IMG/VR virus record: IMGVR_UViG_3300029822_000049
Location: 1-32,077 of that record
DNA from: a virus
DNA: 32,077 bases
Reading direction: 5' to 3' (one strand)
Part shown: positions 1-17,759 of the stretch, in pieces
Layout: every line of letters begins with the position of its first letter
How positions within the stretch are numbered: position 1 is the first letter of the stretch
Notes under the pieces: model-generated
The model's input: the letters and a program-made list of their open reading frames with translations, nothing else
Database searches by the model: none
Told to the model about the DNA's origin: nothing
Program-made: the position numbers and the translations under genes

Positions 1-99
1 AAGCCAAGATTTTGGGGAGTAGAGGGAGCGTTCCGAAATGATTAGATACGACCTCAACCGGTTTTGGGCGGACGGAAGTCGTATCGACCTATTCGCTGC
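1..99. repeat. terminal direct repeat, copy 1 (identical to 31979-32077); circular-closure overlap
   Basis: The 99 nt aagccaagattttgggg...ctattcgctgc recur exactly at the 3' end of the window. Bases 1-45 duplicate the 3' end of the 29531-32023 CDS. Confidence 0.95.
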
Positions 100-1135: not shown

Positions 1136-2043
1136 ACCAAGAAATAGAAAATATCCTCAAACGCCTTGAACGTCTCGAAGCTAAAGAAACACCAACCGTC
1201 AAACCAGTAGATTTATCGGCGTTTGTGGATCTAACCAGTAACCAATCAGTTGGAGGGGTGAAAACATTTACTTCAATACCATTATTGCCATCTTCTATGC
1301 CGACATTAAACAACCAAGCCGCGAATAAAGCTTATGTTGATAGTGTAGCAGGTGGCGGCGGTGTTACCGACCACGGAGCGTTGACAGGACTGGAAGATAA
1401 CGACCACCCTCAGTATCTGCTTACAACTGGCAAAGCGTCTGACAGCGATAAATTAGATGGTGTCGATTCTACCGGCTTTGTGAAAACGACTGGAACGCAG
1501 ACCGTAGGCGGTACAAAGACCTTCTCGTCTATTCCGGTCTTACCTGCCTCGAACCCTACCGCCGCAAATCAGGCTGTTAGGAAAGGCTATGCTGACGGGG
1601 CTTATTTAGGGATAAATGGCAAAGCGGCGGATTCTGACAAGTTGGACGGACTGGACAGTACGGCTTTTGGACGACCCGTATTTCTGACCACCCCTCTCAC
1701 ATCAACCTCGTGGGATGGCGACGCATACTCAACAACCGCAAAGACGCTGATTGACCTGTCAAGCGTGTTTGGCGCGCCGGCTGGAATTAAAGGCATTTTC
1801 GTTAAACTGGCAGCAAGAGATTCCGGAAGTTCAGCTGGATATTGCCAATTGGGTTTGTCACCGAACAGTACCGCCTACAGTATGGCTATACAGTGCTACT
1901 TGCAAGGTGTAGCAAACGATGTTTATGTTTCCGCAAATGGAATAGTTCCTTGCAACGCCAATGGCGACATTTACTATCAGATCACTGCCAGTGGGACTGG
2001 GACGCTTGACGCATTTATAGAAATCTGGGGCTACTGGCTATGA
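1132..2043 (+). CDS. tail fibre / receptor-binding protein
   Basis: 303 aa. N-terminal coiled coil (ILKRLERLEAKE). Internal repeats typical of phage fibres: SDSDKLDGVDSTGF and ADSDKLDGLDSTAF, each preceded by TF(T/S)SIP(L/V)LP...NQA(A/V)(N/R)K(A/G)Y(V/A)D. Confidence 0.75.
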   Translation: MNQEIENILKRLERLEAKETPTVKPVDLSAFVDLTSNQSVGGVKTFTSIPLLPSSMPTLNNQAANKAYVDSVAGGGGVTDHGALTGLEDNDHPQYLLTTGKASDSDKLDGVDSTGFVKTTGTQTVGGTKTFSSIPVLPASNPTAANQAVRKGYADGAYLGINGKAADSDKLDGLDSTAFGRPVFLTTPLTSTSWDGDAYSTTAKTLIDLSSVFGAPAGIKGIFVKLAARDSGSSAGYCQLGLSPNSTAYSMAIQCYLQGVANDVYVSANGIVPCNANGDIYYQITASGTGTLDAFIEIWGYWL

Positions 2044-2168
2044 CACTACCATTTGGCATTGACATCAGCAAACATCAAGGCACGAAAGCCGTCAAATTAT
2101 CAGGATTTTACGAGACCGGCTCGTCCGGCTTGATCATCGGCATTAATGGAAAGGAACAGGCGAAATGA
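2040..2168 (+). pseudogene. 42-aa remnant ORF carrying a GH25 muramidase N-terminal motif (MTLPFGIDISKHQG...)
   Basis: The ATG overlaps the fibre stop (ATGA). GIDISKHQG matches the catalytic N-terminal GH25 motif, but the rest is unrelated and short. Confidence 0.4.
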
Positions 2169-2245
2169 AACCCATTATCGACATTAGCGCATGGCAACGT
2201 GCCGGTTTTACCGACTGGTTGGGCACCTGTGTAAAACTAGTTTAA
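2165..2245 (+). pseudogene. 26-aa remnant ORF duplicating the endolysin 5' end (MKPIIDIS...)
   Basis: The first 24 nt are 20/24 identical to 2255-2278. All 4 differences are synonymous third positions. Similarity stops after codon 8. The ATG overlaps the previous stop (ATGA). Confidence 0.45.
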
Positions 2246-2254
2246 GGAGAAAAA

Positions 2255-3628
2255 ATGAAACCAATTATTGACATAAGTCATCATCAAGTATCAAACAAGA
2301 TTGATTACGACCTACTAGCAAGCCAAGTAGAAGCGGTCATCATCAGAGCATCTTACGCAACAGCAGTAGAACGTGAGTTTGAAAACCACTATCGAGAACT
2401 ATCAAAACGTGGTGTGCCAATGGGCGTGTATCATTATATTGTTGAGTATAGGTCAGTTGAAGCGCAAGTGGAAACATTCGCAAGTCGAGTAGCAGGAAAA
2501 GAGTTCAAACTTGGCTACTGGGCGGACGTTGAACTTGAACCAAACGCCACACCACTAACACGCCAGACCGTACACAAATTTATGCAACAAACAGAAGCAA
2601 GATTGAATACCGAGTTAGGGATTTATACAAGCTATTACATGTGGACACAAATCATGGGCGGTGCATATTACACTAACCGAAAATTATGGGTTGCACATTA
2701 CACCACAGGCAACGTGCCGATTTTACCGCCCGGGTGGCAAGATTGGTGGCTATGGCAACACACGTCAAAGGGCAAGCTACCGGGCTACAGTGGCGACCTA
2801 GACATGAACAAGTTTCGGTACGGGAAAGAAGTGTTTGACGCATGGATTGACAGAGAGCCAGTAGAAGAACCCGAACCAGAACCAGAACCAGAACCAGAAT
2901 TGGTACTGTACTCACCAGTCCCGAAAGGCACGAGAATAACACAGCGGTTTGGTATGAACCCTAGTTGGTATCCAACATCCAAAGGTCATAACGGTATCGA
3001 CTATGGCACTATGGTCGGCACGCCGATTACAGCTATGGCTGACGGTATTGTAGAAGTATCAAAAGAGCAAGTTGGGGGCTATGGCAGGCATATTAGAATT
3101 AGGCATGAGCATGGCGTATCCATTTACGGACACCTATCAAGACGAGATGTACAAGTAGGCGATAAAGTCATTGCAAAGCAACGCATTGGATTATCAGGCG
3201 GCAACCTTGAAGACCCTTACGCCGGTTTTAGTACCGGAGCGCACTTACATGCAGAATACCGCCAAGATAAGCCAGTTGTACCACTTGTACCCGGAAGCTA
3301 TGTTTACAATGCGATAGACCATTTACCGTTTATAAAAGAGGAAGAAGAAGAGGAGATACCCATGTTATATCAAGTTGAAGTAACAGTTTATGCCCTCAAC
3401 ATTCGAGCCGGAGTAGGAACACGTTATCCAATCATCCGAACGGTGTTGAAAGGTACAATCCTCAACGTTTACGCCGAAAGCCAAGAATGGCTGAAAGTTG
3501 GGGATAATCAATGGTGCAGTGGCGATAACCGGTACGTGAAACGCCTAGCCAATCCACCCTGTGAACCATGCGACAAAGAAGAAAAACTGAACAAACTTTG
3601 GGAAGCACACCCAGAATTGCATGAATAG
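2255..3628 (+). CDS. three-domain endolysin: GH25 muramidase + M23 peptidase + SH3b cell-wall binding domain
   Basis: GH25 motifs: IIDISHHQ, GVYHY, WADVE, WLWQHTSKGKLPGYSGDLDMNKF. A PEPEPEPEPEPE linker follows. M23 motifs: HNGIDYG (HxxxD) and GAHLHAEY (HxH). An EEEEEE linker follows. SH3b-like segment: LNIRAGVGTRYPIIRTVLKGTILNV...WLKV. Strong RBS (taaggagaaaaaATG). Confidence 0.9.
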   Translation: MKPIIDISHHQVSNKIDYDLLASQVEAVIIRASYATAVEREFENHYRELSKRGVPMGVYHYIVEYRSVEAQVETFASRVAGKEFKLGYWADVELEPNATPLTRQTVHKFMQQTEARLNTELGIYTSYYMWTQIMGGAYYTNRKLWVAHYTTGNVPILPPGWQDWWLWQHTSKGKLPGYSGDLDMNKFRYGKEVFDAWIDREPVEEPEPEPEPEPELVLYSPVPKGTRITQRFGMNPSWYPTSKGHNGIDYGTMVGTPITAMADGIVEVSKEQVGGYGRHIRIRHEHGVSIYGHLSRRDVQVGDKVIAKQRIGLSGGNLEDPYAGFSTGAHLHAEYRQDKPVVPLVPGSYVYNAIDHLPFIKEEEEEEIPMLYQVEVTVYALNIRAGVGTRYPIIRTVLKGTILNVYAESQEWLKVGDNQWCSGDNRYVKRLANPPCEPCDKEEKLNKLWEAHPELHE

Positions 3629-3635
3629 GAGAAGC

Positions 3636-4223
3636 ATGTACAGAGCAAACTGGCTAAGAAGCCAACGAATAAATTTTATGTGGGACATAATAAAATCCGT
3701 TCCAGAACCGAAACGCATCCTAGTAACATCAGAAGAAGACATTGACGTTATTGACGTATTATCCACAAGATTACAAAATGTGGAGTACGAAATGCTAATC
3801 ACTCACCCGGAACAGCGAAAAAACAAGGCAAAATCAAATTTTACACATGTACCCATATCAACAACCAAACGTTATAACATCATCGTGATTTTAGGCGGTT
3901 TTAACACTGACAATGATATGGAAGAAAAAATCAAAACCGTAAGCAAACTGCTTGCCAAAAATGGCATGTTGTACTTCGAAGCCCCAAATCATTTAGCGTA
4001 TTCGACCGGAGCATCCGGGTACAGAACAATTGCCGGAAACGGAACACAAAAAGGCTGGCACTTGACCCGAGTGGAATGGTCTGACATATTGCAAAAAACA
4101 GGACTAACGACTATCAGACAATATAGCGGTCATGCCAGTGTTTGGCAATTTATCTGGACGTTACAAAAAGAGAAAGAAACCAAAAAAGATGCTAAAATGG
4201 AGAAGTCAAAGAGCGAAAAGTAA
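3636..4223 (+). CDS. hypothetical protein with class I methyltransferase-like core but no glycine-rich SAM loop
   Basis: The ORF is open from 3621. The ATG at 3636 follows aggaga. RYNIIVILGGF...VSKLLAKNGMLYFEAPN parallels HYNLVVYTSSIEH...IIHPNGTLVLTCPN of the 16252 methyltransferase. The motif I position reads KRILVTSEEDIDVIDVL, with no GxGxG. Confidence 0.45.
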   Translation: MYRANWLRSQRINFMWDIIKSVPEPKRILVTSEEDIDVIDVLSTRLQNVEYEMLITHPEQRKNKAKSNFTHVPISTTKRYNIIVILGGFNTDNDMEEKIKTVSKLLAKNGMLYFEAPNHLAYSTGASGYRTIAGNGTQKGWHLTRVEWSDILQKTGLTTIRQYSGHASVWQFIWTLQKEKETKKDAKMEKSKSEK

Positions 4224-4248
4224 TTCGGTTCAGCAGGAACATCCACGA

Positions 4249-4530
4249 ATGAAAAACGCCAAAATTATTTTAGAACAAGCCAAGAAAGAAACCGATATTA
4301 GAGAAGCGTTTAACTTGTTAATCGACTTAATGATATCAGAATTTGAACACGAAAGGGATAAAATGGAAGCCTATGACAAGTTACTATTCGGGAACGGAGA
4401 CCCGACAAAAAGTATCCTATCAAGACTTGACCGCCTTGAAACAAACTTGTCAAACGCAGTCAAAGTTTTGTATGCAGTTGGTATCGCAATCTTGATTGAA
4501 ATTGTGATGCGGATTATCAAATTGATTTAG
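4249..4530 (+). CDS. tail-anchored coiled-coil membrane protein, XhlA-like lysis accessory (tentative)
   Basis: 93 aa from the internal ATG; the track ORF 4132-4530 overlaps the upstream gene. Helical N-terminus (SRLDRLETNLSNA) and a single C-terminal TM (VLYAVGIAILIEIVMRIIKLI). Lies between endolysin and holin. Confidence 0.45.
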   Translation: MKNAKIILEQAKKETDIREAFNLLIDLMISEFEHERDKMEAYDKLLFGNGDPTKSILSRLDRLETNLSNAVKVLYAVGIAILIEIVMRIIKLI

Positions 4531-4545
4531 AAAAAAGGAGAATAT

Positions 4546-4890
4546 ATGGCACAAGAAATTTTAGCGATTATCGCAGGACTAGCAGCACTTGGTACTATGA
4601 TATCGCTTGTCGTAAACGTATTGAAATATTTTAAGGTAGTCAAAGACGGAGACGCAGAAAAATGGGTACAAGGTTTAAACCTTGGAGCGTTCGTGATTGT
4701 AGCGATTGTCTATTTTTTGAACGTTGACCCAGATTGGGGAAAGATAAATGGCTACATCGAAGTTGCAGTAGTAATCCTTGGTTACCTCGTGCAAATTTTA
4801 GGTAGCAAGGTCGCCTACCCATTAATCAAGAACACCCCGGTCATTGGTTACAGTTACACCGAGCAGAAGAAGAAAGAGCCGGCTGGATAA
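4546..4890 (+). CDS. holin (three predicted TM helices)
   Basis: 114 aa. TM1 ILAIIAGLAALGTMISLVVNVL, TM2 LNLGAFVIVAIVYFLNV, TM3 IEVAVVILGYLVQILG, and a charged C-terminus EQKKKEPAG. RBS aaaggagaatatATG. Part of the lysis cassette. Confidence 0.8.
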   Translation: MAQEILAIIAGLAALGTMISLVVNVLKYFKVVKDGDAEKWVQGLNLGAFVIVAIVYFLNVDPDWGKINGYIEVAVVILGYLVQILGSKVAYPLIKNTPVIGYSYTEQKKKEPAG

Positions 4891-4919
4891 CCGCCCACAT
4901 TATCCAACACCAACCAACA

Positions 4920-4952
4920 CCGCCCGGACACCGCCCCCGGGCGGTTTATTTA
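4920..4952 (+). terminator. rho-independent terminator ending the late/lysis operon
   Basis: 8-bp GC stem ccgcccgg (4920-4927) / ccgggcgg (4937-4944), followed by tttattta. Confidence 0.75.
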
Positions 4953-4992
4953 TCCGTAAAAAAACTGCTTCAAAATTGCTATAAATTGACCC

Positions 4993-5021
4993 TTGACAAA
5001 AATCTGAACATCCCTTATAAT
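4993..5021 (+). promoter_or_regulatory. consensus sigma70/sigmaA-type early promoter P1
   Basis: TTGACA (4993-4998), 17-nt spacer, TATAAT (5016-5021). About 40 nt are nearly identical to 9261-9300. Phased AAATTG repeats lie upstream (4973, 4983). Confidence 0.8.
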
Positions 5022-5068
5022 ACCAATGTCATTCAGAAACAACTAACAAAAACAAGGAGATAAACAAA

Positions 5069-5503
5069 ATGAACACCAGCAAAGAAATCACAAGAGACCA
5101 TATAATCATCAAGGTCATAAACACAGCGAATAATTCATACGAATTAGAGTTTGCACAATATACTATCAAGTATCTGAAAAGAGAAAGCGATATTTACCCG
5201 ACCGCATACACCAGCCCTAAAAACCAGTTAGATAGAATGAAAGACGGAACATCATTATTCGTTATGAGCGATGATGAAAAAAATAAATACGAGAAACATT
5301 TTAGCCAAGTTTATAAATCTTTTGGAAGCAAATTCGAAAGCATGATAAATGACTTGCGCAAAACTTGGGGACAAGACGCACCAAAAAAACTAATACCTAA
5401 CTGGTCAGACGATAACCTAGAAACACAAAACCAAGCATTAATCGAACACTTGTTTGACCAATTCATCAAACGAGTTTATCAAGAATGTAAAGCAAAGAAC
5501 TAG
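5069..5503 (+). CDS. hypothetical early protein (first gene after P1)
   Basis: 144-aa ORF with RBS caaggagataaacaaaATG. No recognisable motif. Confidence 0.7.
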   Translation: MNTSKEITRDHIIIKVINTANNSYELEFAQYTIKYLKRESDIYPTAYTSPKNQLDRMKDGTSLFVMSDDEKNKYEKHFSQVYKSFGSKFESMINDLRKTWGQDAPKKLIPNWSDDNLETQNQALIEHLFDQFIKRVYQECKAKN

Positions 5504-5512
5504 CACAAGAAC

Positions 5513-5532
5513 GCCCGGGTTTTCACCCGGGC
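5513..5532 (+). promoter_or_regulatory. intercistronic GC stem-loop (no U-tract)
   Basis: gcccggg / ttttca / cccgggc, followed by an A-run rather than a T-run. Confidence 0.5.
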
Positions 5533-5558: not shown

Positions 5559-5837
5559 ATGAAAGACAACACCAACCAACCAACAGAAAAGACCCTTGAC
5601 AACGAGATTTTAGAGGACTTCGCAGAACTAGAAGTACTGTTAGGAGAAATGCTCCAAGAAATCTTTGACAAAGGCAAAGAGGTCATCAACAACTTCGACA
5701 ATGCCGATATACCAACATTCGTGCAAATGAAAGACGAACTAGCTGAAAGACTTGAAATGTATTGCGGTATCACCCTGTTTTATGCAACGGTCAACAACAT
5801 CATGGAAGAAGAAGATGAGGAGGAAAACAAAGAGTAA
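5559..5837 (+). CDS. small highly acidic early protein
   Basis: 92 aa with about 26 Asp/Glu against 7 Lys/Arg. Ends in the tail EEEDEEENKE. RBS caaaggagaaacaacATG. Confidence 0.7.
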   Translation: MKDNTNQPTEKTLDNEILEDFAELEVLLGEMLQEIFDKGKEVINNFDNADIPTFVQMKDELAERLEMYCGITLFYATVNNIMEEEDEEENKE

Positions 5838-5853: not shown

Positions 5854-5886
5854 GACACGCCGGGAAATTAGAAAACCCGGCGTGTC
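5854..5886 (+). promoter_or_regulatory. intercistronic stem-loop (11-bp stem)
   Basis: gacacgccggg (5854-5864) pairs with cccggcgtgtc (5876-5886), with an 11-nt loop and no T-tract. Confidence 0.55.
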
Positions 5887-5956
5887 AAACCAACAACAGG
5901 AGAGTAACATAAATAACAGAATTGTAACACAAACAAAAAAACAAGGAGAAAACAAC

Positions 5957-6757
5957 ATGGAAACCAAGAACCTAACAAAGGCACTCATCGAGTTCCAAAA
6001 CGCCGTAAAACCCGCAAAATTTGACGCTAATAACCCATACTATAACAGCCGATATGCCAGTTTAGGCGAAATCATCAACACCGTCAAAAGCGAAGCCGGA
6101 AATCACGGATTGACATGGATACAGCTACCGATATCAGAGGGAGACCGAGTAGGCGTTAGAACAATCCTAATGCACGAAAGCGGAGAGCAAATTGAGGACA
6201 GCATTTTGGTACAGTTACCGCCAACGTATGTAACCAACAGCAAAGGCATTGACGTACTGCAAAACCAAATCCAAGAGACCGGTAAGTACATAACCTATCT
6301 GAGACGTTACGCCCTTGCAAGCGTGTTCGGTTTATACGCAGAGGAAGATAATGACGGAAACCAAAGAGGTCACAGCCCAACACCGACAAGCACCCGACAA
6401 CCGTCAAAAGCCCCGGCAAAGAAAGCCACCTCCACCAAAGCCCCGGAACGTCCATACTCACCCAAAGACTTAAAGAAAGTATTAGTGGCATATGCACCAA
6501 AACTAGCATCAGCAACACCACACCAGAAGAGACAAGTTGTGGCGGTATTGTCACAGTACACGGAAAATGATGACGCCAGACACCTTGTGCAAAAATTGTT
6601 GTTTGGCTTCGACTCTATCGATGACGCAAACGATAAACTTGTCAACGCAACGCACCGGTGGCTAAACGCCAAATGGGACGGTGAAACCAAGCAATACTTG
6701 TTACCAGAACCACAAGCCAGTGAGCTTTTGGCAATAATTGAGGAAGCCACCAAATGA
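5957..6757 (+). CDS. erf: ERF-family single-strand annealing recombinase
   Basis: LTKALIEFQNAVKPAKFDANNPYYNSRYASLGEIINTVKSEAGNHGLTW matches the ERF N-terminal signature (from memory). ATG at 5957 follows aaggaga. The GTG at 5882 in the track lies inside the hairpin. Pro/Ser/Thr-rich linker. Confidence 0.8.
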   Translation: METKNLTKALIEFQNAVKPAKFDANNPYYNSRYASLGEIINTVKSEAGNHGLTWIQLPISEGDRVGVRTILMHESGEQIEDSILVQLPPTYVTNSKGIDVLQNQIQETGKYITYLRRYALASVFGLYAEEDNDGNQRGHSPTPTSTRQPSKAPAKKATSTKAPERPYSPKDLKKVLVAYAPKLASATPHQKRQVVAVLSQYTENDDARHLVQKLLFGFDSIDDANDKLVNATHRWLNAKWDGETKQYLLPEPQASELLAIIEEATK

Positions 6758-7518
6758 AAGCAAACCGGATTATCCGGGTTTCAAAACGAGAGCAATTCTT
6801 AGTCGTCCTAACCCAAACGGTACAGGACGACACGCTCTCATGGAAAGCCCGTGGGATTTTAGTTTATCTTTTGTCACTTCCAAATGACTGGCAGGTATTC
6901 GTAAGCGATTTAATAAACAGAGCACCTGACAAGGAAACGTCACTTCGAAGCGGATTAAGAGAATTAGAGAAAGCAGGTTACCTAACCAAGCAAAGAACCA
7001 GAGACAGCAAAGGCAAAATAACAGGTACAGAGTGGATAATCCACGAGAAAGCAGAAGTCCAGCCATATGGTGAAAACCCACATGTGGAAAACCCACATGT
7101 GGAAAACCCACATGTGGAAAATCAAGGACTAATTAATAAGAACTTAACTAAAGAAGTATCTGAAACTAAAAATAACTTAAATAAAGATACGCCCTCGCTT
7201 CGCTCAGGCGGTCACCGAGAAATGGTACAAGCGATTGAAAACCTAACCATGCTTGACATGAAAATCAAAAGCAACGCCGGTCAAATCGTAAGACTATCCA
7301 AAGAACTAAGGCAAGCCGGTTATGAAGCAGAACACGTCAAACAGTTTGGTGAACATTGGAAGACGGACTGGCGTTACAAGAAAGACCAGTCACCGCCAAG
7401 CATCACCGTATTACGCCAAGAAATTGGCAAAGTAAAGAACCACAAATCAACACCAACCAACAGCCTTGAAACATTCAGGCAATTGGCAAGAAAACAAAAA
7501 CAAGAAATGGAGAACTAA
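6754..7518 (+). CDS. replisome organiser / DnaD-like replication initiator (winged HTH N-terminus)
   Basis: LSWKARGILVYLLSLPNDWQVFVSDLI...LRSGLRELEKAGYL, then ENPHV x3 and an Asn/Lys-rich linker typical of Firmicute phage replication proteins. ATGA overlap with erf. Confidence 0.7.
   Translation: MKANRIIRVSKREQFLVVLTQTVQDDTLSWKARGILVYLLSLPNDWQVFVSDLINRAPDKETSLRSGLRELEKAGYLTKQRTRDSKGKITGTEWIIHEKAEVQPYGENPHVENPHVENPHVENQGLINKNLTKEVSETKNNLNKDTPSLRSGGHREMVQAIENLTMLDMKIKSNAGQIVRLSKELRQAGYEAEHVKQFGEHWKTDWRYKKDQSPPSITVLRQEIGKVKNHKSTPTNSLETFRQLARKQKQEMEN
7072..7122. repeat. 3.4 tandem copies of a 15-bp iteron gaaaacccacatgtg (each contains the palindrome CACATGTG); putative origin
   Basis: Exact copies at 7072-7086, 7087-7101 and 7102-7116, plus a partial copy at 7117-7122. 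An AT-rich tract follows at about 7127-7190. Confidence 0.6.
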
Positions 7519-7520: not shown

Positions 7521-7913
7521 ATGTATCACGAACTATCACTAATCGGAAGACTAGGGCGCGACCCGGAAGCACGCTACACCAAAGACATGCACGAGAGTAG
7601 CAGTTTCAGCGTAGCGGTAAATTCGTATGGAGAAGATAATCCTGTCATTTGGATAAACGTAACCGCATGGCGTGAAGCCGCACAATTTTGTAACAAATAT
7701 TTACGAAAAGGCGACTTGGTATATATCGCAGGAACGCTAAGAGCAGACAAAGACACCGGCGCACCAAGACTGTATCAAAAACGAGACGGAACGACAGGAG
7801 TCCAATTCGAAATCAATGCCAGAAACGTCATCGGATTAGCTTATGGCAGCAACAAACAAGAAAAAACAGCGGAAAATCAAGAGGGAGAATGGGGAGATGA
7901 TATTCCATTCTAA
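7521..7913 (+). CDS. ssb: single-stranded DNA-binding protein
   Basis: OB-fold start LIGRLGRDPEARYT, an acidic tail and the canonical C-terminal tip GDDIPF. Confidence 0.92.
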   Translation: MYHELSLIGRLGRDPEARYTKDMHESSSFSVAVNSYGEDNPVIWINVTAWREAAQFCNKYLRKGDLVYIAGTLRADKDTGAPRLYQKRDGTTGVQFEINARNVIGLAYGSNKQEKTAENQEGEWGDDIPF

Positions 7914-8607: not shown

Positions 8608-8636
8608 GTCCGGGTGGTCACCAACACCACCCGGAC
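8608..8636 (+). promoter_or_regulatory. intercistronic stem-loop, copy 1 of a 25-nt repeated element
   Basis: gtccgggtgg / tcaccaaca / ccacccggac. The core ccgggtggtcaccaacaccacccgg is identical at 10576-10600. Confidence 0.6.
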
Positions 8637-8653
8637 AAGAAAGAGAGTAAAAA

Positions 8654-9235: not shown

Positions 9236-9267
9236 AAAATTGGTCAGAAATTGGGTCAAATTGACCC

Positions 9268-9297
9268 TTGACAAAAACCACGAACATCCCTTATAAT
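9268..9297 (+). promoter_or_regulatory. consensus sigma70/sigmaA-type promoter P2 (duplicate of P1)
   Basis: TTGACA (9268-9273), 18-nt spacer, TATAAT (9292-9297). Three AAATTG repeats at 9237, 9248 and 9258. Confidence 0.75.
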
Positions 9298-9345
9298 ACT
9301 AGTGTGGTTCAAAAACAACCAACAAACCAAAGGAGAAAAAACAAA

Positions 9346-9670: not shown

Positions 9671-9690
9671 GCCCGGGCGAAAGCCCGGGC
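9671..9690 (+). promoter_or_regulatory. intercistronic stem-loop with GAAA tetraloop
   Basis: gcccgggc gaaa gcccgggc, preceded by ccaacaccaaccaaa as at 4903-4919. Confidence 0.6.
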
Positions 9691-10072: not shown

Positions 10073-10558
10073 ATGAAAGCAACAAAACAGGACACCAAAG
10101 CAAAGCAGAGCCTAATCAACGCAATCGCTAAAGCGGTCAAGATGACATACGAACAGTATAAAGACCACTCGGTCATTGCGAGGTCATTCGGGAGCAGTAC
10201 CTATGACATAATCGAAAGCCATAGCGAACAACAGACCCAGAACCCAGACACCTACGTCTGCACTACAACAGAAGATGACGTTATTTATTTAGCACAAGCA
10301 GTTGACGTTGACAACAGACAGGACATGTACTATGAAATCGCTGTCATCATTGCCAACAATCTGCACAAGTACAGAAAACCAGACACGGTTGTCATCAATG
10401 GAAGAACCGTTGATTGGGAAGTGGCGTTACGGTACATGGACGATGAAATCAGAGAAGCAGTCGCAAGCTATGAGACTATCACCTCCAACCAAGAATTCGT
10501 AGACGAATACGCCAAGCAACACTATTACGATTTCAAAGAGGTTTTTGAAATCAACTAA
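10073..10558 (+). CDS. hypothetical protein
   Basis: 161 aa from ATG 10073 (aaaggagaaaccATG). Confidence 0.65.
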   Translation: MKATKQDTKAKQSLINAIAKAVKMTYEQYKDHSVIARSFGSSTYDIIESHSEQQTQNPDTYVCTTTEDDVIYLAQAVDVDNRQDMYYEIAVIIANNLHKYRKPDTVVINGRTVDWEVALRYMDDEIREAVASYETITSNQEFVDEYAKQHYYDFKEVFEIN

Positions 10559-10574: not shown

Positions 10575-10601
10575 CCCGGGTGGTCACCAACACCACCCGG
10601 G
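10575..10601 (+). promoter_or_regulatory. intercistronic stem-loop, copy 2 of the 25-nt repeated element
   Basis: cccgggtgg / tcaccaaca / ccacccggg, ending 2 nt before the RBS of the next gene. Confidence 0.6.
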
Positions 10602-10615
10602 AAAGGAGAAACAAC

Positions 10616-11212
10616 ATGAGCGAAGTAAACAAATGCCCAAGATGCGAAGAGGTAAGAGAATATCATTTTTTGAAAAGTAACCAAGAGTTATATTGCGATA
10701 AATGCTTGTCCTCGTTTGACCCTATGTACCAAGAAAACCGACTTGGCAAAGTAGCTGATATTTTACTTGAAATCGACATGTCCGGAACATGCAGAGGAAA
10801 CATCATCATGCCAAACCGATTAGAACAGGTCATCAAGCACCATGAAAACCTGTATCAGTCTATATCCATCGAACTGGACGAGCAGCGGCAAGAAATAACC
10901 GATTACAAAGAAAGAACCAAAGATAAGAAATTCGTTGACAACAAAAACATTTTATGCCCGGAATGTCTGAATTATGAATACCTGTACGTTGGAGAAAGAG
11001 GTTGGTTCTACTGTGCCAAATGCGACCAAGATATTTTAGACGATGACATACTCACCGTTAGCAGGCACAATCCAATCTGCCACAGGTGCGGTCAAAAAAA
11101 AACCGTTGAACACTGGTCTGATGATAGACACGGAGACGACCGGTTACTAAGCGTTTGGTGTGCAGTTTGCAAAGACGAAGCATTACGCTCAGACGATGAC
11201 ATTCCATTTTAG
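10616..11212 (+). CDS. triple zinc-ribbon protein with an SSB-like C-terminal DDDIPF tip
   Basis: 198 aa from ATG 10616 (aaaggagaaacaacATG). Three CxxC...CxxC pairs: CPRC..CDKC, CPEC..CAKC, CHRC..CAVC. The last 7 residues are SDDDIPF. Confidence 0.7.
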   Translation: MSEVNKCPRCEEVREYHFLKSNQELYCDKCLSSFDPMYQENRLGKVADILLEIDMSGTCRGNIIMPNRLEQVIKHHENLYQSISIELDEQRQEITDYKERTKDKKFVDNKNILCPECLNYEYLYVGERGWFYCAKCDQDILDDDILTVSRHNPICHRCGQKKTVEHWSDDRHGDDRLLSVWCAVCKDEALRSDDDIPF

Positions 11213-11232: not shown

Positions 11233-11400
11233 ATGAAAACACTAATTGACTTTGCAATCCTATACATTACATACATCGTGCCATTTATAGCGATTTTGAC
11301 CCTGTTTTACTTCGTAGAACAAACGATAATAAAAAGGTCAAATAGAAATAAAGCAGACCGTTACCCGGTCATCAAAACAGTAAGGAGAAAATATGAGTAA
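11233..11400 (+). CDS. small single-pass membrane protein (55 aa; below the ORF-track cutoff)
   Basis: MKTLIDFAILYITYIVPFIAILTLFYFVEQ followed by a basic tail. RBS aaggaaaaatccaATG. Its stop overlaps the next gene's start. Confidence 0.45.
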   Translation: MKTLIDFAILYITYIVPFIAILTLFYFVEQTIIKRSNRNKADRYPVIKTVRRKYE

Positions 11401-11635
11401 AGGAAAAGCCTATTTTAGCGTCCAACCGAAAAACGAATATTGGATGGCATCCGTCCAATTACGAGCAACCACCGGAATGACAAAAGCAGATGTAGCCAGA
11501 GCAGCCGGAGTAAACATCAAAACGATTGACAAATTCGAAGCTAATGGAGCAGAAAGAATGGTTGTCGGAACGTTACGTAAAATCGTTGAAGCAATGGGAT
11601 ATGAATTAGTCCTAACAATCAAAGACAAGGAGTAG
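11393..11635 (+). CDS. XRE-family helix-turn-helix DNA-binding protein
   Basis: 80 aa. The segment MTKADVARAAGVNIKTIDKFEANG is a classic HTH. Confidence 0.75.
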   Translation: MSKGKAYFSVQPKNEYWMASVQLRATTGMTKADVARAAGVNIKTIDKFEANGAERMVVGTLRKIVEAMGYELVLTIKDKE

Positions 11636-11637: not shown

Positions 11638-11817
11638 ATGAATGAAGAATATTTTAAGCCATGCCCATTTTGTGGAAGCAAAGAAGTACTGAAACGCAAG
11701 GTAATGCTAAACGAACAAGTTGAATATATTACCGAGTGTCAAAAATGCTTTTGCGTTGTCCAAGGTTGGGGAGAAACCAAAGACGATGAACCTTGGAATC
11801 AAAGAGCCAACGAATAA
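11638..11817 (+). CDS. Lar-family-like zinc-ribbon protein (restriction alleviation family, tentative; 59 aa, below the track cutoff)
   Basis: MNEEYFKPCPFCGSKE...ECQKCFC...PWNQRANE shows the CPFCG, CxxC and WNxR hallmarks of Lar-like proteins (from memory). Confidence 0.5.
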   Translation: MNEEYFKPCPFCGSKEVLKRKVMLNEQVEYITECQKCFCVVQGWGETKDDEPWNQRANE

Positions 11818-11888
11818 AAAACCAACACCAACAGGAGAACTAAAATGAACAAAAAAGAAACAGGAGCAAAAAGGAAGGAGCGTGGGGA

Positions 11889-12311
11889 ATGAAACAGATT
11901 AGCAACTATGCAGAAACCCTTATAGAGAGCATTGTGTTGGGGGCTTGGGAAAGGGGGGCATATGCCGACACGGTTCTTGGCTACGACGAGGAAGAGGAGT
12001 GGGACTACCAAAAAAAAGAGGTGGAACTACTAATGACTTACATCGCCGACCTTGAAGCCGAAGTCGAGGCGTTGCGACCGTATCGGGATGGGTGTGACCC
12101 GCAAGAGCGGTTGCCAGAAGTAAATAAATATGAACCGAACACCTCGGTTAATGTCGATGCATTAATCCTGACGGCCAGCGGTGTTGTTTTTTGGGGCACG
12201 TTATATTACCACTTCGACAAGAAAGAATGGTTAAGGATTCGAGACGATATGGTAATCCTTCGCTGGTATCCGCAACTGCCATATTCAGAAAGCGAGGTGA
12301 GAAATGAGTGA
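11889..12311 (+). CDS. hypothetical protein with DUF551-like C-terminus (tentative)
   Basis: 140 aa. RBS aaggagcgtggggaATG. ERLPE...VVFWG...ILRWYPQLP resembles the DUF551 pattern. Locally GC-rich. Confidence 0.55.
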   Translation: MKQISNYAETLIESIVLGAWERGAYADTVLGYDEEEEWDYQKKEVELLMTYIADLEAEVEALRPYRDGCDPQERLPEVNKYEPNTSVNVDALILTASGVVFWGTLYYHFDKKEWLRIRDDMVILRWYPQLPYSESEVRNE

Positions 12312-12717
12312 ATTGAAACGGTGTCCGTTTTGTGGGGGTAGGGCGGATTACATTCAAATATTGGGTAATTATGAACGTCCGCACGAAGTATATTGTTTTA
12401 CTTGTGATGGAGGAATAACAGAGGGCAGGTCAAAGGACGGCGTTATCCACAACTGGAACACCCGTCCGATTGAGGACGAACTCCGAAAGCGCATTGCCGA
12501 GCTTGAGGCGGCGCAACGCTGGACACCAGTGAGCGAGAGGTTGCCGGAGTGCGAGAAGGATGTTCTCGTATTCTGGGGAAAAGCATTGGACGGTTCAAAG
12601 ATTGATTGGTTTGGGACTGCGTGGCGAAACGATATCGATGATGGTAAATGGTGTACAGACCCGATTGTGCCCACCCACTGGATGCCACTTCCGCAACCGC
12701 CGGAGGTGCAGGAATGA
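12304..12717 (+). CDS. Lar-like zinc ribbon fused to a DUF551-like domain
   Basis: LKRCPFCGG...CFTCDG...HNWNTRP, then a coiled-coil linker, then WTPVSERLPE...VLVFWG...THWMPLPQPPE. Confidence 0.6.
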   Translation: MSELKRCPFCGGRADYIQILGNYERPHEVYCFTCDGGITEGRSKDGVIHNWNTRPIEDELRKRIAELEAAQRWTPVSERLPECEKDVLVFWGKALDGSKIDWFGTAWRNDIDDGKWCTDPIVPTHWMPLPQPPEVQE

Positions 12718-13082
12718 AGAGCGAAGGAATGAACAAAAAAGAAACAGAAGAAAAAACAGTTAACCAGTTCGAAAAAACAGTCAACCAGTTTGATAATGCA
12801 GTTTATAACGAGCGTATCAACAGAGGAAAAAACGGGTACAGTTACCACATGGAAGAGTATTACAGAACTAGAGAAAAAATACTCCACACAGGAAACATGT
12901 TATCAAAAACAATTGACTTGCTAGAAAAAACAAAGCAAAACCTAAGTAAAGCATTATTGACTTGTGAGTTACTTGTTCCACACAGCGAAGCGTTTCAAAC
13001 CTTACTAAAAAGACGCATTGAACAAATTGATGAACTCGTAAAAGAAGCCGGTCAAGAGTTTAACTATAATTGGAAACCATAG
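12714..13082 (+). CDS. hypothetical helical protein
   Basis: 122 aa from ATG 12714 (ATGA overlap with the previous stop). Contains an in-frame 21-bp tandem duplication (KTVNQFE/KTVNQFD). Confidence 0.6.
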   Translation: MKSEGMNKKETEEKTVNQFEKTVNQFDNAVYNERINRGKNGYSYHMEEYYRTREKILHTGNMLSKTIDLLEKTKQNLSKALLTCELLVPHSEAFQTLLKRRIEQIDELVKEAGQEFNYNWKP

Positions 13083-13092: not shown

Positions 13093-13647
13093 ATGGAAAA
13101 GAGCTACGTTCTAGAACGCAACCAAACCACGATTAGACTAAAAATAGCTGATGAAATTTTAGACCGGTTCGTGTTATTGTTCGAAATTGCCAGAGATACA
13201 CAATTCACAATCGGCGACTTGTTAGAGGAAGTTATCCAAGCACACAGCCCACTATTCAGCAAGCAACAGATTATAAATTACATTGCAGGACATTTAAGAG
13301 TATCACCCGGGACATTGTACGACTATCACCGTATCGCAATGTTATGGACACCAGACTGGAGAGCGCAATATCAAAATCTTGACTGGACGTTTTACCGCAT
13401 GATTGACCCAACAGACCCGGACGATATCGAGCTACTTGAAACCGCCATTGATGAGGGCTGGAACGTCACCACGCTGAAAGAGGAAAAGTACCCTATCCTA
13501 AAATCAGCAGGCAGCCTGTTAGGACGCATAATATCACTGTGCCGAAAAGCAATTGAAGCAACAGACATTGATGAATTTGACCGGAACGCAATTGTCAAAT
13601 TCCTTGACGAAATTAAAACAACAGAGACAGGAGTAAACAATGAGTAA
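13093..13647 (+). CDS. hypothetical protein, possible HTH DNA-binding protein
   Basis: 184 aa. RBS ataggagagaatacATG. The segment SKQQIINYIAGHLRVSPGTLYDYHRIA looks HTH-like. Confidence 0.6.
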   Translation: MEKSYVLERNQTTIRLKIADEILDRFVLLFEIARDTQFTIGDLLEEVIQAHSPLFSKQQIINYIAGHLRVSPGTLYDYHRIAMLWTPDWRAQYQNLDWTFYRMIDPTDPDDIELLETAIDEGWNVTTLKEEKYPILKSAGSLLGRIISLCRKAIEATDIDEFDRNAIVKFLDEIKTTETGVNNE

Positions 13648-14008
13648 ACAAGAAAACCCATGGATTGACGCAAGTAAAAAACCGTTATTCCAACTGAGCG
13701 AAGCAAGAGACAGGATAATCATCAACAACAATGAAGAACGTCAAAGAACAGAGGACATCATCATCCTGTACTTATTCGTTGACGAACTAAAACCCGGAGC
13801 ATCAATTGATACAGTCATGTGGCGTTGGAGTTTTGGCGTTTACTATATTGACGAAATGAGGTATCGAAGCGATGACGGAACTGAAATCAAACTTGAAAAT
13901 AGTGTTTGGAAATGGAGCAAACCTAACATGCAACAACATCAAGTGTATATTACAGCGTATATGCTACTTCCAGAAGTAGACGGTATCGATTGGGATTTTA
14001 TACCATGA
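13640..14008 (+). CDS. hypothetical protein (weak DUF551-like pattern)
   Basis: 122 aa. Overlaps the neighbouring genes at both ends. Confidence 0.6.
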   Translation: MSKQENPWIDASKKPLFQLSEARDRIIINNNEERQRTEDIIILYLFVDELKPGASIDTVMWRWSFGVYYIDEMRYRSDDGTEIKLENSVWKWSKPNMQQHQVYITAYMLLPEVDGIDWDFIP

Positions 14009-14661: not shown

Positions 14662-15399
14662 ATGGATAATAACATTATAAAAAATAGGATTATCGGCACA
14701 GGAGAAGAACCACTAGACCAAATCCTATACAATCCAAAAAACTGGCGTATTCACCCACGTTATCAACAAGACGCATTAGAGGGAGTACTAAAAGAAATTG
14801 GCATAGTCCAAACGGTAATTATTAATAACATTACAGGCAACTTAATTGATGGGCATTTACGCTGTCGCTTAGCTGAAAAAAACGGACAAACAACAATACC
14901 AGTAACGTATGTTGAATTATCGGAAGAAGAAGAGGAAATAATCCTTACCAGCTTTGACCCGATTAGTGCAATGGCAACAACAGATAAAGAAAAACTAACA
15001 GAATTAATAAATTCAATCGAAACAGAAAATGAAACAATCCAAAATATATTAAATTCAATCGAAGACATAAATAAATTAGGGAACAAAAACGAAGGAACAG
15101 CCTTAGATATACTAACGTTAAACATAGATGAACCACTTACAGAAGTACAACCCGGAGACATTTATTACCTTGGGAATCATGTCCTAGTATGCGCTTCAAC
15201 TATCAAAAATAGCGAAACATGGAGACCATACTTTAACGATAATATGATTTTAGTACCATGGGCTAATCCATTAACTTTATTATCTGACCTCGCAGAAAAA
15301 ACAACAGTATTAGCACTCAATCCTCAGCCTTATGTTTGCGGGCATATTATTGATAGATACAAGGAAACAAATCCAGACAAGGAAATTATAAAATTATGA
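14662..15399 (+). CDS. ParB/Srx N-terminal domain protein with a decayed methylase-like C-terminal stub (DpdB-analogous position)
   Basis: NPKNWRIHP...VIINNITGNLIDGHLRCRLAEKNG...IPVTYVELSEEEE. C-terminus GDIYYLGNHVLVCAS...MILVPWANP, where ParB-methylase fusions have G(D/N)HRLlCGD...DPPY. AT-rich. Its stop overlaps the next ATG. Confidence 0.65.
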   Translation: MDNNIIKNRIIGTGEEPLDQILYNPKNWRIHPRYQQDALEGVLKEIGIVQTVIINNITGNLIDGHLRCRLAEKNGQTTIPVTYVELSEEEEEIILTSFDPISAMATTDKEKLTELINSIETENETIQNILNSIEDINKLGNKNEGTALDILTLNIDEPLTEVQPGDIYYLGNHVLVCASTIKNSETWRPYFNDNMILVPWANPLTLLSDLAEKTTVLALNPQPYVCGHIIDRYKETNPDKEIIKL

Positions 15400-16223
15400 A
15401 AAAAACAGGAGGAGCCCACTACCAAAAAAACAATACTCAGCTATATTTTATGGCGATAGGTGCTGACGACGCTAAAATATTTAATAACGCAAAAATCGCA
15501 AAAAATACATTATTACCATTAAACGCAATCACGCAAAACAATTTAGAAACGATAAAAAACCTACCAAACTTAAACCTATTAATAGATTCAGGCATTTACA
15601 ATTTAGCGAACACGATATCAAAAAAAGAAAAACTAACATTCACTGAAGCATTAAATATAAATCCAGAAAGAATACCAAGCTTCGAAGCTTATTATTCTAA
15701 TTATATTAAAACCATAAAAGAACTAGAACCACACATATGGGGATATATAGAATTAGACATAGGTGGCGAAAAAATAAAAACAAAATTACGTAAACAAATA
15801 GAAAAAGACGGATTAATACCTATACCTGTATGGCACCCATTAATTGATGGATTAAATTACCTCCAACAACTATTAGAGGAATACGACAGAATCTGTATAG
15901 GTAACCTATCTTATACTTCCAACAACGAAAGAATGAAAATACTACAAACCGTATTTAATATTAGAAATAATATAAAAAACAAAACATGGATTCACGCATT
16001 AGGCATGACACCAAATACCTTGTTGTATACATACCCAGTAGAGTCATGTGACTCATCTGCATGGGTATCAGGCATTAGATTCGCGAACCTTAAGGTTACA
16101 GGCGGAGCTGAAAATTTTGGCACACTAAGTAAAAAATACTTATACAACAAGCAAAGTAAAAAACATTATGAAAAAGCAAAACTATTAGCTAATTACGAGA
16201 CATATTTTATGGAATTAAACTAG
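15396..16223 (+). CDS. dpdA: tRNA-guanine-transglycosylase-superfamily protein, DpdA-like DNA transglycosylase candidate
   Basis: 275 aa. Ordered motifs LLIDSGIYN, WIHALGMTP and VESCDSSAW resemble TGT/ArcTGT DSGG(F/Y)Q, HLFG(V/A)G and D(L/M)FD(S/C). No CxCxxC zinc site. Flanked by the ParB-like gene and near the YhhQ-like gene. Confidence 0.55.
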   Translation: MKKTGGAHYQKNNTQLYFMAIGADDAKIFNNAKIAKNTLLPLNAITQNNLETIKNLPNLNLLIDSGIYNLANTISKKEKLTFTEALNINPERIPSFEAYYSNYIKTIKELEPHIWGYIELDIGGEKIKTKLRKQIEKDGLIPIPVWHPLIDGLNYLQQLLEEYDRICIGNLSYTSNNERMKILQTVFNIRNNIKNKTWIHALGMTPNTLLYTYPVESCDSSAWVSGIRFANLKVTGGAENFGTLSKKYLYNKQSKKHYEKAKLLANYETYFMELN

Positions 16224-16251
16224 CAAAAATACACACAGGAGCAAAACAATT

Positions 16252-17076
16252 ATGGAAAAAATAGTATATAAAGTGGAACCCGGCATGGATAGAAAACTAA
16301 TAAAAGCAACAACCTACCAAATGCGAAATTTCTATCGACAGTTTGGAGACGGTTTCTTTGGCGTACTAGATGTTATGAATTACATTCAACACCAAGCAAT
16401 AGTTCAAATGGCACGTAAAGGAGACCATGTACTAGATGTTTGTTGTGGCAGAGGATTGTTATTACCAATGCTACGTTATGAACGAAAAAATATAGCTTCT
16501 TACACAGGAGTTGATATAGAACCTAAAAACGCAATATGGCAAACAAAACGAGTAACAGACAACAAACCAATTGAAAAAGATTATTACCCATTCGAAACAA
16601 AATTCATAAGGTCAAACGTCGCTACGATGTCGCCACTATTACAACAAAAACACTATAACCTTGTAGTTTACACTTCCTCAATTGAACACATGCAAAAAAT
16701 TGACGGATACAAGTCATTACAAGAAATTCGCAAAATAATACACCCGAACGGAACACTCGTTCTAACTTGCCCAAATACACCAGAACACAAAGACGGATAT
16801 GATACACAGTATGCAGCTCATGTTTACGAATGGAAACGAAGCGAACTACTCGAAGCATTTCAAGACATTGGATATGAAATACAAAAAGAATATTCAATAC
16901 TTACAACAAAACAAGATATTAAAAACGAAGTACCTGAAATATACAAAAAACTTGAAGACATCATTCCTACATCATGGATAATTGGCGTTCTATCACCACT
17001 TGTTACACCCATAAAATCAAAAGAAATAGCATTCATATTAAAACCATTGCAAAACAATGCTATAAAATCACCATAG
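16252..17076 (+). CDS. class I SAM-dependent methyltransferase (small-molecule type; no DNA-methylase motif IV)
   Basis: Motif I VLDVCCGRG, acidic post-I GVDIE, then YNLVVYTSSIEHM and IHPNGTLVLTCPN. I found no (D/N/S)PP(Y/F/W) and no PCQ-type motif. Confidence 0.8.
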   Translation: MEKIVYKVEPGMDRKLIKATTYQMRNFYRQFGDGFFGVLDVMNYIQHQAIVQMARKGDHVLDVCCGRGLLLPMLRYERKNIASYTGVDIEPKNAIWQTKRVTDNKPIEKDYYPFETKFIRSNVATMSPLLQQKHYNLVVYTSSIEHMQKIDGYKSLQEIRKIIHPNGTLVLTCPNTPEHKDGYDTQYAAHVYEWKRSELLEAFQDIGYEIQKEYSILTTKQDIKNEVPEIYKKLEDIIPTSWIIGVLSPLVTPIKSKEIAFILKPLQNNAIKSP

Positions 17077-17090
17077 AAAGGAAAAAACCC

Positions 17091-17759
17091 ATGAAAAACA
17101 AAGAAAGAAACATAGTCCTTATAATTGTCGCCTTAATCGGAATGTACATTGCTTCGCAGGCGATAGCGGACGTTGCAGCGACCCGAATGATTCAAATCGG
17201 AAAAATCGTATTACCCGGTGGCGTACTCATGTTCGCATTAACTTTCACGTTGCGAGACTTTATTCATAAGCGATTAGGTAAAAAATGGGCACGAGCAACA
17301 GTCATCATGGCAGCAGTAATGAATGTCGTCCAACTAGCGTACCTGTATTTTATCGGCAAGCTAGACACGCCTGTATTTTATGGTTTCAATGAAGAATGGC
17401 GAAATATCTTTGCTATTGTCCCAGCGGTATCAATCGCCAGTATTGTAGCTGAAGTATCCAGTCAACTAATTGACACGGAAGTGTATCAATTCATTATGGA
17501 CAAATATCCAAAATTGCCACAGATATTCAGAGTATTAATATCAAACTTCATCGCCTTACCATTCGACTCGTTAATCTTTGCGTTACTCGGTTTTGTTATT
17601 TTGCCACAATTGTTTGGCAGTACAAGTTACACATTTTTTGACGCAATAGCATTGACATCAGGACAGATTATTTACAAAGCGATAGTGACCATTTTATCTG
17701 CTCCAGCCATTTATTTAATCAAAGACGAGCCGATAAAGGTGTCCTTAATGACAGAATAG
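17091..17759 (+). CDS. yhhQ: YhhQ/VUT-family queuosine-precursor (preQ0/preQ1) transporter
   Basis: 222 aa from ATG 17091, polytopic. FALTFTLRDFIHKRLGKKWARATV, SQLIDTEVYQF and PFDSLIFALLGF align by eye with E. coli YhhQ (FLATDLTVRIFGAPLARRII, GQILDVHVFNRL, VSDTLAFFFIAF). Same length class. Confidence 0.75.
   Translation: MKNKERNIVLIIVALIGMYIASQAIADVAATRMIQIGKIVLPGGVLMFALTFTLRDFIHKRLGKKWARATVIMAAVMNVVQLAYLYFIGKLDTPVFYGFNEEWRNIFAIVPAVSIASIVAEVSSQLIDTEVYQFIMDKYPKLPQIFRVLISNFIALPFDSLIFALLGFVILPQLFGSTSYTFFDAIALTSGQIIYKAIVTILSAPAIYLIKDEPIKVSLMTE

Follow-up and report, generated by a model that had tools for sequence, protein, structure and literature searches.

The zinc-ribbon gene and its product

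The window analyzed here is the whole 32,077-nucleotide stretch of the IMG/VR virus record IMGVR_UViG_3300029822_000049, and our subject is a gene on its + strand at 10616..11212 (stop codon included), which encodes a 198-aa protein with three predicted zinc ribbons and, at its very end, the C-terminal tip known from SSB, the bacterial protein that binds single-stranded DNA. This is a real gene with a good ribosome-binding site (RBS). A Shine-Dalgarno sequence, AAGGAG, stands at 10603..10608 (+), 7 nt ahead of the ATG at 10616, and supports this ATG as the start. The start of a longer open reading frame (ORF), at GTG 10580, would fall within a GC-rich stem-loop (10575..10601, +; 10-bp stem, -21 kcal/mol) which lies between the upstream stop codon and the RBS.

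Translation of 10616-11212 (+) yields a protein with the C-terminus ...CAVCKDEALRSDDDIPF*, with a TAG stop directly after ...KDEALRSDDDIPF, and thereby confirms the DDDIPF ending given in a preliminary description of this DNA. The tip itself, D193-D-D-I-P-F198, occupies 11192..11209 (+), and the stop codon follows immediately. The same description had counted three CxxC...CxxC units with spacers of 16-22 residues; the three units are borne out by the cysteine positions, and the spacers are in fact 15-23 residues long (16, 15, and 23 in order). All three predicted units have the two CxxC pairs, 15-25 residues apart, of a Cys4 ribbon, and one lone cysteine, C59, lies outside them. Ribbon 1 (C7xxC10-N16-C27xxC30; 10634..10705, +) was modeled by AlphaFold2 with low confidence and is missing from one lineage of the family, that of P0015. 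It is followed by a helical hairpin in the AlphaFold2 model (10721..10918, +; helices at ~36-56 and ~66-101, pLDDT 80-92), by ribbon 2 (C114xxC117-N15-C133xxC136; 10955..11023, +), which is classical and TFIIB-ribbon-like, and by ribbon 3 (C155xxC158-N23-C182xxC185; 11078..11170, +), the best-conserved module of the family. Only 13 residues separate the last zinc ligand from the terminal Phe (10 in P0015), and in the phage's own SSB ~27 residues lie between the end of the Pfam match to the oligonucleotide/oligosaccharide-binding (OB) fold, at residue 103, and the terminal Phe. The protein has an isoelectric point (pI) of 5.0 and a net charge of -12 (39 Asp+Glu versus 27 Lys+Arg); each of its sub-domains is net negative, and ribbon 2 has a pI of 4.2. 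Judged from its sequence, the composition is acidic and not like that of a DNA-binding protein, and the protein looks soluble.

The SSB tip docks through its terminal Phe and carboxylate in a hydrophobic, basic pocket on partner proteins. In bacterial genome maintenance it serves as the central address label, and a phage protein bearing such a label without being an SSB would naturally compete for the SSB hub or act as an adaptor to it. The preliminary description held DDDIPF to be the docking peptide of SSB, which is established knowledge (PMC5872125, PMC11981726; Shereda et al. 2008 as cited there), and the search for antibiotics has taken the tip as a target (PMC5872125). We consider it likely that the tip of the zinc-ribbon protein functions in docking to at least one SSB-partner pocket.

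Fold and homology searches

No match to an OB fold or SSB family was found for the zinc-ribbon protein in Pfam or PHROGs, and the AlphaFold2 model and Foldseek concur with the earlier reading that it has no OB-fold-like sequence; it does not belong to the SSB family. Searches of PHROGs, PADLOC, INPHARED (by tblastn), and GTDB genomes returned zero matches, and Pfam zinc-ribbon models matched below threshold only. The Lar-like model PF14354 was among the Pfam models compared, scoring 11.8 bits against a curated cut-off of 28.6 (E 0.29), which excludes it from the Lar family as well. No known anti-CRISPR (Acr) or anti-defense family was matched in Pfam, PHROGs, PADLOC, or PDB sequences, and no DNA-binding family or fold in Pfam, PHROGs, Foldseek, or the PDB sequence search. 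A PDB sequence profile search did relate ribbon 2 to the TFIIB ribbon 1pft (E 5.9e-5), which is a generic ribbon.

AlphaFold2 was run twice on a 5-sequence alignment and gave models of moderate confidence (predicted local distance difference test, pLDDT, 74; predicted template modeling score, pTM, 0.52-0.58), in which ribbon 1 is poorly defined, the helical hairpin is predicted with confidence, two further ribbons are formed, and the tail is disordered. Predicted strands are confined to the ribbons and are placed around each knuckle in ribbons 2 and 3. Foldseek searches of the model against the PDB and BFVD yielded no significant match and no OB match. As modeled, the combination of ribbon, helical hairpin, ribbon, ribbon, and tip is without a relative in the PDB or BFVD.

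The top Foldseek match, the zinc-ribbon region of human TOP3B (E 0.014), raises the idea that the protein is an unconventional binder of single-stranded DNA (ssDNA), in effect a second, non-OB SSB whose tandem ribbons would bind ssDNA via aromatics, in the way that type IA topoisomerases do with their C-terminal ribbons or T7 primase with its zinc-binding domain. Ribbons 2 and 3 are indeed rich in Trp, Tyr, and Phe, and many non-canonical phage SSB families end in DDDIPF. However, the TOP3B match is not significant (template modeling score 0.26) and was kept as a lead only, all of the ribbons are net acidic, ribbon 2 with its pI of 4.2 included, the aromatic positions of ribbon 2 are not kept in P0014 or P0015, and the phage already has an SSB. 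We regard ssDNA binding of this kind as quite improbable.

Conservation of the tip

The family is a small one. HMMER, run exhaustively over 1.84 billion representative proteins, returned two clusters only, single-sequence and profile searches of 5.8 billion clusters gave three lineages in total, and scans of viral and metagenome contigs added no further lineage. All three lineages are confined to a single group of siphophages of ~30 kb whose metagenomes are of anaerobic or fermentation origin. Lineage (a) comprises the allele of the window together with one that is 88% identical to it (P0001 and others), and lineage (b) is represented by P0014, a 197-aa protein 47% identical to that of the window. 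In lineage (c), represented by the 190-aa P0015, ribbons 2 and 3 are homologous and the N-terminal ~100 aa are unrelated; a homologue search with this N-terminal domain came up empty.

The C-termini read ...KDEALRSDDDIPF in the window, ...KQPAEIYDDDIPF in P0001, ...KAPAEMSDDDIPF in P0014, and ...QGEAETEIPF in P0015, and the ORF stops immediately after the Phe in every homologue. Between the window protein and P0014, identity amounts to 20/35 in ribbon 1, 26/75 in the helical region (the most diverged part between lineages), 13/30 in ribbon 2, 20/36 in ribbon 3, 2/4 in the residues just ahead of the tip, and 6/6 in the tip. Those four residues ahead of the tip are identical at 1-2 of 4 positions between any pair of alleles. 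At the DNA level, the related contigs L001 and L005 are 73-78% identical over ribbon 3 and the tip and 29-69% elsewhere, and ribbon 3 with the tip is the module common to all lineages. When the window is compared to L001, the ribbon-3 loop and the residues ahead of the tip form the sole diverged stretch.

The preliminary description had named an unconserved tip as the result that would speak against it, and the tip is conserved, at all six residues in P0014 and as xEIPF in P0015. Because the six residues are all retained at 47% overall identity beside a varying linker, and EIPF is kept in P0015, we conclude from these alignments that the tip is under selection. The identity of the tip within the 88% cluster was not accepted as strong evidence, since the tip codons there adjoin identical downstream DNA; on sequence grounds, the weight is carried by the P0014 and P0015 comparisons. 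The same adjacency makes hitch-hiking possible, and with it the explanation that the tip is a functionless remnant, captured for example by recombination with the 3' end of an ssb gene. Against such a neutral origin, the tip is kept at 47% identity by a variable linker and again in a different architecture, and the zinc-ribbon gene and the SSB gene have no homology beyond the tip, so we find this explanation very hard to credit. Nor can chance account for the tip, the odds that a random protein would end in DDDIPF being ~1e-8 by our own estimate.

Divergence of the zinc-ribbon gene and of its neighbors

Rates of divergence were compared gene by gene with tblastn among the window and the related contigs L005, L001, and L006. 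Between the window and L005, identity is 90% for TerL, 88% for SSB, 92% for Vut_1, and 77% for an initiator fragment, falling to 64% for the AcrIC5-domain protein encoded just upstream of the zinc-ribbon gene and to 47% for the zinc-ribbon protein, the lowest value among the syntenic early genes (a tie with one unannotated ORF). In the comparison with L001, most of the syntenic neighbors are 92-100% identical, and the zinc-ribbon protein is 88% identical, with a mosaic patch in its ribbon 3. In L006, the AcrIC5-domain gene is 94% identical and stands beside the 47% allele of the zinc-ribbon gene, which indicates that the alleles of the latter have been exchanged independently of their neighbors. 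The pattern is that of an accessory gene facing a variable partner; it is the one expected for a variable host partner and not for a conserved phage partner such as the SSB or the initiator.

Each phage of the group has exactly two xIPF-ending ORFs, the SSB and the zinc-ribbon protein. In the window, the former is an OB-fold SSB at 7521..7913 (+; Pfam SSB 2.9e-21, phrog_44) that ends in ...EGEWGDDIPF*, in agreement with the WGDDIPF previously reported for it, and it is the only xIPF-ending ORF there besides the zinc-ribbon gene. Across the group, the SSB tip drifts (GDDIPF, GDNIPF, DDDIPF, SDIPF), and the zinc-ribbon protein retains the bacterial consensus DDDIPF in lineages (a) and (b).

These comparisons bear on the proposal that the zinc-ribbon protein regulates the phage's own tail-dependent machinery, its tip competing with the tail of the phage SSB for Erf or another phage partner and so timing a switch between recombination and replication. 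The tails of phage SSBs are needed for function, and annealing by the Sak4 protein of HK620 depends on the last six residues of its cognate SSB (PMC5928155), which provides a precedent; Erf and SSB also accompany the zinc-ribbon gene in all three lineages. Nevertheless, the rapid divergence of the body of the protein argues against a conserved phage partner, and an SSB tip that drifts (as to GDNIPF) while the zinc-ribbon protein keeps DDDIPF fits a host pocket better. Regulation of the phage's own machinery is, in our view, unlikely.

Genomic context

The window is essentially the entire genome of a siphophage of ~32 kb, and the longest contig with the zinc-ribbon protein measures 32,105 bp. 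Tail, baseplate, and lysis genes occupy 38-4890, and the early region starts at a perfect sigma-70 consensus promoter (4993-5021, +) and contains Erf (5882-6757), a DnaD/O-like initiator (6754-7518), and the SSB. A second promoter with perfect sigma-70 consensus, TTGACA-N18-TATAAT at 9268..9297 (+), is a paralogue of the first and probably starts the operon containing the zinc-ribbon gene, which is probably expressed early and from this host-type promoter. The two promoter regions (4961-5069 and 9236-9345, +) are ~80% identical over ~105 nt with TTGACA-N17/18-TATAAT in each, and both are also present in L001. A palindrome, GGGTCAAATTGACCC, overlaps the -35 side of the second promoter, and the first promoter retains one half of it, AAATTGACCC. 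Since paralogous promoter regions head both operons, co-regulation of the replication/recombination and accessory operons by one repressor is suggested.

After the 9268-9297 promoter come small ORFs, the AcrIC5-domain gene, and the zinc-ribbon gene. The AcrIC5-domain gene (10073..10558, +) encodes a 161-aa protein in which the C-terminal ~50 aa form the AcrIC5 domain (PF22147, 1.3e-14; PDB 7yhr, 9e-7), fused to an unannotated N-terminal part of ~105 aa. The domain suggests that the host has a type I-C CRISPR-Cas system. Elsewhere in IMG/VR, about 20 contigs carry stand-alone or otherwise-fused AcrIC5 domains. Downstream of the zinc-ribbon gene, there are in order a 55-aa ORF, an 80-aa Xre/HigA-HipB-like helix-turn-helix (HTH) protein (11393..11635, +), a 59-aa Lar-like zinc-ribbon gene (11638-11817, +), and a Lar+DUF551 fusion gene (12304-12717, +; 39.2 bits versus a cut-off of 28.6). 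The HTH protein is in the position that an anti-CRISPR-associated (Aca) regulator would hold, and it matches HigA/HipB-type antitoxins rather than a named Aca. With the AcrIC5-domain gene and the two Lar-like genes, the stretch at 10.0-12.7 kb resembles an anti-defense island, and its gene content varies between relatives. Farther downstream are a VRR-NUC nuclease, a variable DNA-modification block, Vut_1, and the terminase, portal, and capsid genes.

A scan of all ORFs of the non-structural region except a few short ones, the largest ORF there being 291 aa, turned up no helicase, primase, or polymerase, which confirms what had been said of this genome before. A recruiting adaptor would make up for these missing enzymes: the ribbons or the helical hairpin would bind a phage protein or DNA structure (the DnaD-like initiator at an iteron origin, or Erf-coated ssDNA), and the tip would bring in host SSB-partner enzymes such as PriA, primase, a clamp-loader or polymerase contact, RecO, and similar. 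The promoter of the zinc-ribbon gene, being paralogous to that of the replication operon, is consistent with such a role. On the other hand, the phage's own SSB already brings a tip to ssDNA, the zinc-ribbon protein is acidic and has no DNA-binding signature, its divergence is far more rapid than that of the phage SSB, initiator, and TerL, which would be its co-evolving partners, and in the window lineage its gene is placed among accessory and anti-defense genes. We hold recruitment to be possible, and only somewhat less probable than the blocking role discussed below.

As for the host, the capsid protein shows weak similarity to Clostridia phages, with phages of Acutalibacter, Faecalibacterium, and Clostridioides as its closest isolates (41-45% identity), and one relative comes from a 'fermentation metagenome'. 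No prophage relative was found in 185,579 GTDB species genomes with profiles of the family and of a tail protein, and a megablast search of the phage against known phages gave no match. Going by these protein similarities, the host is probably an anaerobic member of the Clostridia.

Stem-loops, repeats, and the DNA-modification block

The stem-loop ahead of the zinc-ribbon gene has a twin at 8610-8634, and the two copies (8610-8639 and 10576-10605) are 93% identical. They belong to a set of strong, GC-rich, intergenic stem-loops based on CCCGGG at 4919-4945, 5513-5532, 8608-8636, 9671-9690, and 10575-10601, with folding energies of -17 to -22 kcal/mol and z scores of -2.6 to -5.8. The first four of these have no U-tract and lie just 5' of an early gene's RBS; the 4919-4945 stem-loop has a T-rich run behind it and may be a terminator for the module before it. 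CCCGGG pairs, as sequence motifs, are also found just upstream of the homologue of the zinc-ribbon gene in L005 and L006 and, in the phage that carries P0015 (contig L008), just past the P0015 gene. These stem-loops could be RNA stabilizing or processing elements, or else recombination boundaries of gene cassettes.

Inside the gene of the initiator (6754-7518), the stretch at 7063-7121 (+) is made up of overlapping repeats that recur every 15 bp, with four palindromic CCA(T/C)ATGTGG cores and AAAA between them. By analogy, they resemble an iteron-type origin inside an initiator gene, as in lambda O. A 29-nt direct repeat is present at 11844-11872, 12728-12756, and 13611-13639 (+), with 76-93% identity between copies and spacings of 884 and 883 nt; the first copy is just 5' of the start of the ORF at 11889-12311 and the third is just 5' of that at 13640-14008.

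The variable block of DNA- and nucleotide-modification genes precedes the terminase, at 14662-17759 (+) in the window, 13434-16269 in L001, and 8430-11492 in L005. It contains two unannotated genes (245 aa and 275 aa) that are 38-44% identical between relatives, the 245-aa one with a weak ParB_N match. The pair is followed by a gene for an S-adenosylmethionine (SAM) methyltransferase in the window and by QueC in L005, and is preceded by a dCMP deaminase in L001; the block ends with the conserved Vut_1, which is like a queuosine-precursor transporter. This content hints at DNA modification of the 7-deazaguanine type.

DDDIPF on other viral proteins

IMG/VR was scanned for DDDIPF followed by TAA or TAG, and from the 120 stretches listed 117 ORFs were analyzed. 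Among these listed matches, to which all counts in this section refer, 38 of the 117 ORFs are canonical SSBs per an iterated SSB hidden Markov model, and the other 79 fall into 42 clusters. Non-canonical phage SSB families are represented by phrog_18154/7364, phrog_743, phrog_9002, and the gp2.5-like phrog_112, and a further family matches phrog_1192, which PHROGs names as SSB. The tip is also present on at least five phrog_16 DNA helicases (in L051, L090, L098, L050, and L094), a DnaB_C helicase fragment, a sliding-clamp-like polymerase processivity factor of phrog_947 (L087, 6511-7686, +), and a 270-aa ERF annealing protein with a C-terminal zinc ribbon (L031, - strand). Additionally, DDDIPF ends two Pam3_Gp34 proteins, DUF6511, at least nine phrog_862 proteins of unknown function, and at least four phrog_1811 proteins of 73-75 aa (L020, L037, L048, and L086) in which the terminal DDDIPF is the sole recognizable feature. 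The phrog_1811 proteins, which are probably all-helical as judged from sequence, are possible minimal decoys or adaptors built on the SSB tip. A 291-aa CAP12/Pycsar-type TIR protein (PF10137, 3.7e-32; L041, ORF ending at 5748, +) ends in ...FDSFDDDIPF, so that a defense-effector-like domain is joined to an SSB tip.

A profile of ribbons 2-3 matched none of the other tip-bearing ORFs listed, which implies that the tip was acquired independently. Among these ORFs, the SSB tip has thus been appended to non-SSB phage proteins recurrently and convergently. This recurrence lowers the surprise of the zinc-ribbon case and raises the interest of the general phenomenon. We found no description of SSB-tip mimicry by non-SSB phage proteins in the searchable literature.

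A possible role for the zinc-ribbon protein

The architecture of the protein, its conserved tip, its fast divergence elsewhere, its genomic context, and its acidity are observed; from them we infer docking, the kind of partner, and inhibition rather than recruitment. Genomic context, acidity, and rapid divergence lean toward a competitor or a host-takeover role, and the zinc-ribbon protein may be a decoy or inhibitor that acts by competitive blocking or sequestration of a host protein, a reading we take seriously while granting it somewhat less than an even chance. An early, zinc-stabilized, acidic scaffold, itself not DNA-binding, would display DDDIPF with a free Phe, the very short tether keeping the tip next to zinc ribbon 3. 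The tip would insert into the SSB-Ct pocket of an SSB-docking host genome-maintenance or defense protein (candidate partner classes are RecJ, RecQ, PriA, RecO, RecG, and Ung), and ribbon 3, perhaps with ribbon 2, would add secondary contacts that confer affinity and target specificity. Competitive occupation of the pocket would uncouple the partner from SSB-coated phage or host ssDNA, for a net role in host takeover or anti-defense. Blocking is favored because it is not evident how the protein could reach DNA, because its divergence outpaces that of the phage replication proteins with which an adaptor would partner, because the 13-residue tether would press ribbon 3 onto the partner's surface, and because its neighbors are anti-defense-type genes.

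More tentatively still, the protein could be a dedicated jammer of the SSB interactome, in which a tip-presenting early protein with a fast-evolving zinc-ribbon specificity module shuts off one SSB-docked host nuclease, helicase, or defense effector that would otherwise attack SSB-coated intermediates of phage replication or recombination. We also considered a link to defense systems that sense phage SSB and set it aside, as activation of DARNA does not require the terminal Phe of the SSB tail.

Several points weigh against blocking. A lone SSB-Ct peptide binds its partners weakly, so decoy action would need extra contacts or high expression. In the survey matches listed, the tip often marks replisome and recombination components rather than inhibitors; its identical presence on the phrog_16 helicases (at least five), the DnaB_C fragment, the phrog_947 clamp, and the ERF protein with its zinc ribbon favors an adaptor. 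In L008, the homologue lies just two small ORFs upstream of Erf, a DnaD-like gene, and SSB, a placement that also suits an adaptor, and has no Acr neighbor. None of the AcrIC5-domain genes in other viral contigs has a tip-bearing neighbor, and guilt by association with AcrIC5 is therefore weak. Recruitment can also draw on T7, where the tails of gp4 and gp2.5 both contact the polymerase (PMC12593628).

If it is a dedicated jammer, the zinc-ribbon protein would be the first described anti-defense or host-takeover protein that mimics the C-terminal docking peptide of SSB, and the many tip-bearing non-SSB phage ORFs would then point to a broad and largely unrecognized hijack of the SSB hub. As competitor or adaptor alike, it would show how a phage without replication enzymes takes over or neutralizes the DNA-processing proteins of its host. 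Given the survey, sharing of the tip may be a general phage tactic.

Comparison with known systems

We place the zinc-ribbon protein among those that join the SSB interaction network by means of an SSB-type tail. Its terminal hexapeptide is identical to that of the SSB-Ct hub, with a free C-terminal Phe and acidic or variable residues before it, and it coexists with a genuine phage SSB bearing the same kind of tip. It differs from SSB in having neither an OB fold nor a long disordered linker, and consists instead of three ribbons and a helical hairpin, acidic throughout. The other viral ORFs ending in DDDIPF likewise carry the tip on proteins other than canonical SSBs, but they are unrelated to it in sequence, and most have recognizable replication or recombination domains, whereas the zinc-ribbon protein has none.

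Small anti-defense and host-takeover proteins of phages, encoded in acr-aca-like operons, offer a second comparison. The zinc-ribbon protein shares with them its small size, acidity, fast evolution, and patchy distribution. In the window it also has a place behind a strong early promoter, beside an AcrIC5-domain gene and with an HTH gene downstream, a setting that is absent in the P0015 lineage and in which the HTH protein is of HigA/HipB type; it differs in having no homology to a known Acr or anti-restriction protein.

By analogy, the closest functional precedent for sharing the SSB tail appears to be gp4 of T7. The tails of T7 gp4 and gp2.5 resemble each other, both end in Phe, and they share binding sites. 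Basic patches on the T7 polymerase are bound by the gp4 helicase through its acidic C-terminal tails (PMC12593628), and gp2.5, the SSB, uses its own acidic tail for contacts with polymerase and helicase-primase. In T7, as is proposed here, the acidic tail of a non-SSB protein contacts a protein that the SSB's tail also contacts, in that case the polymerase. The T7 tails, however, address the phage's own polymerase and do not have the bacterial DDDIPF consensus, and gp4 is an enzyme of known role, whereas the zinc-ribbon protein has no enzymatic domain.

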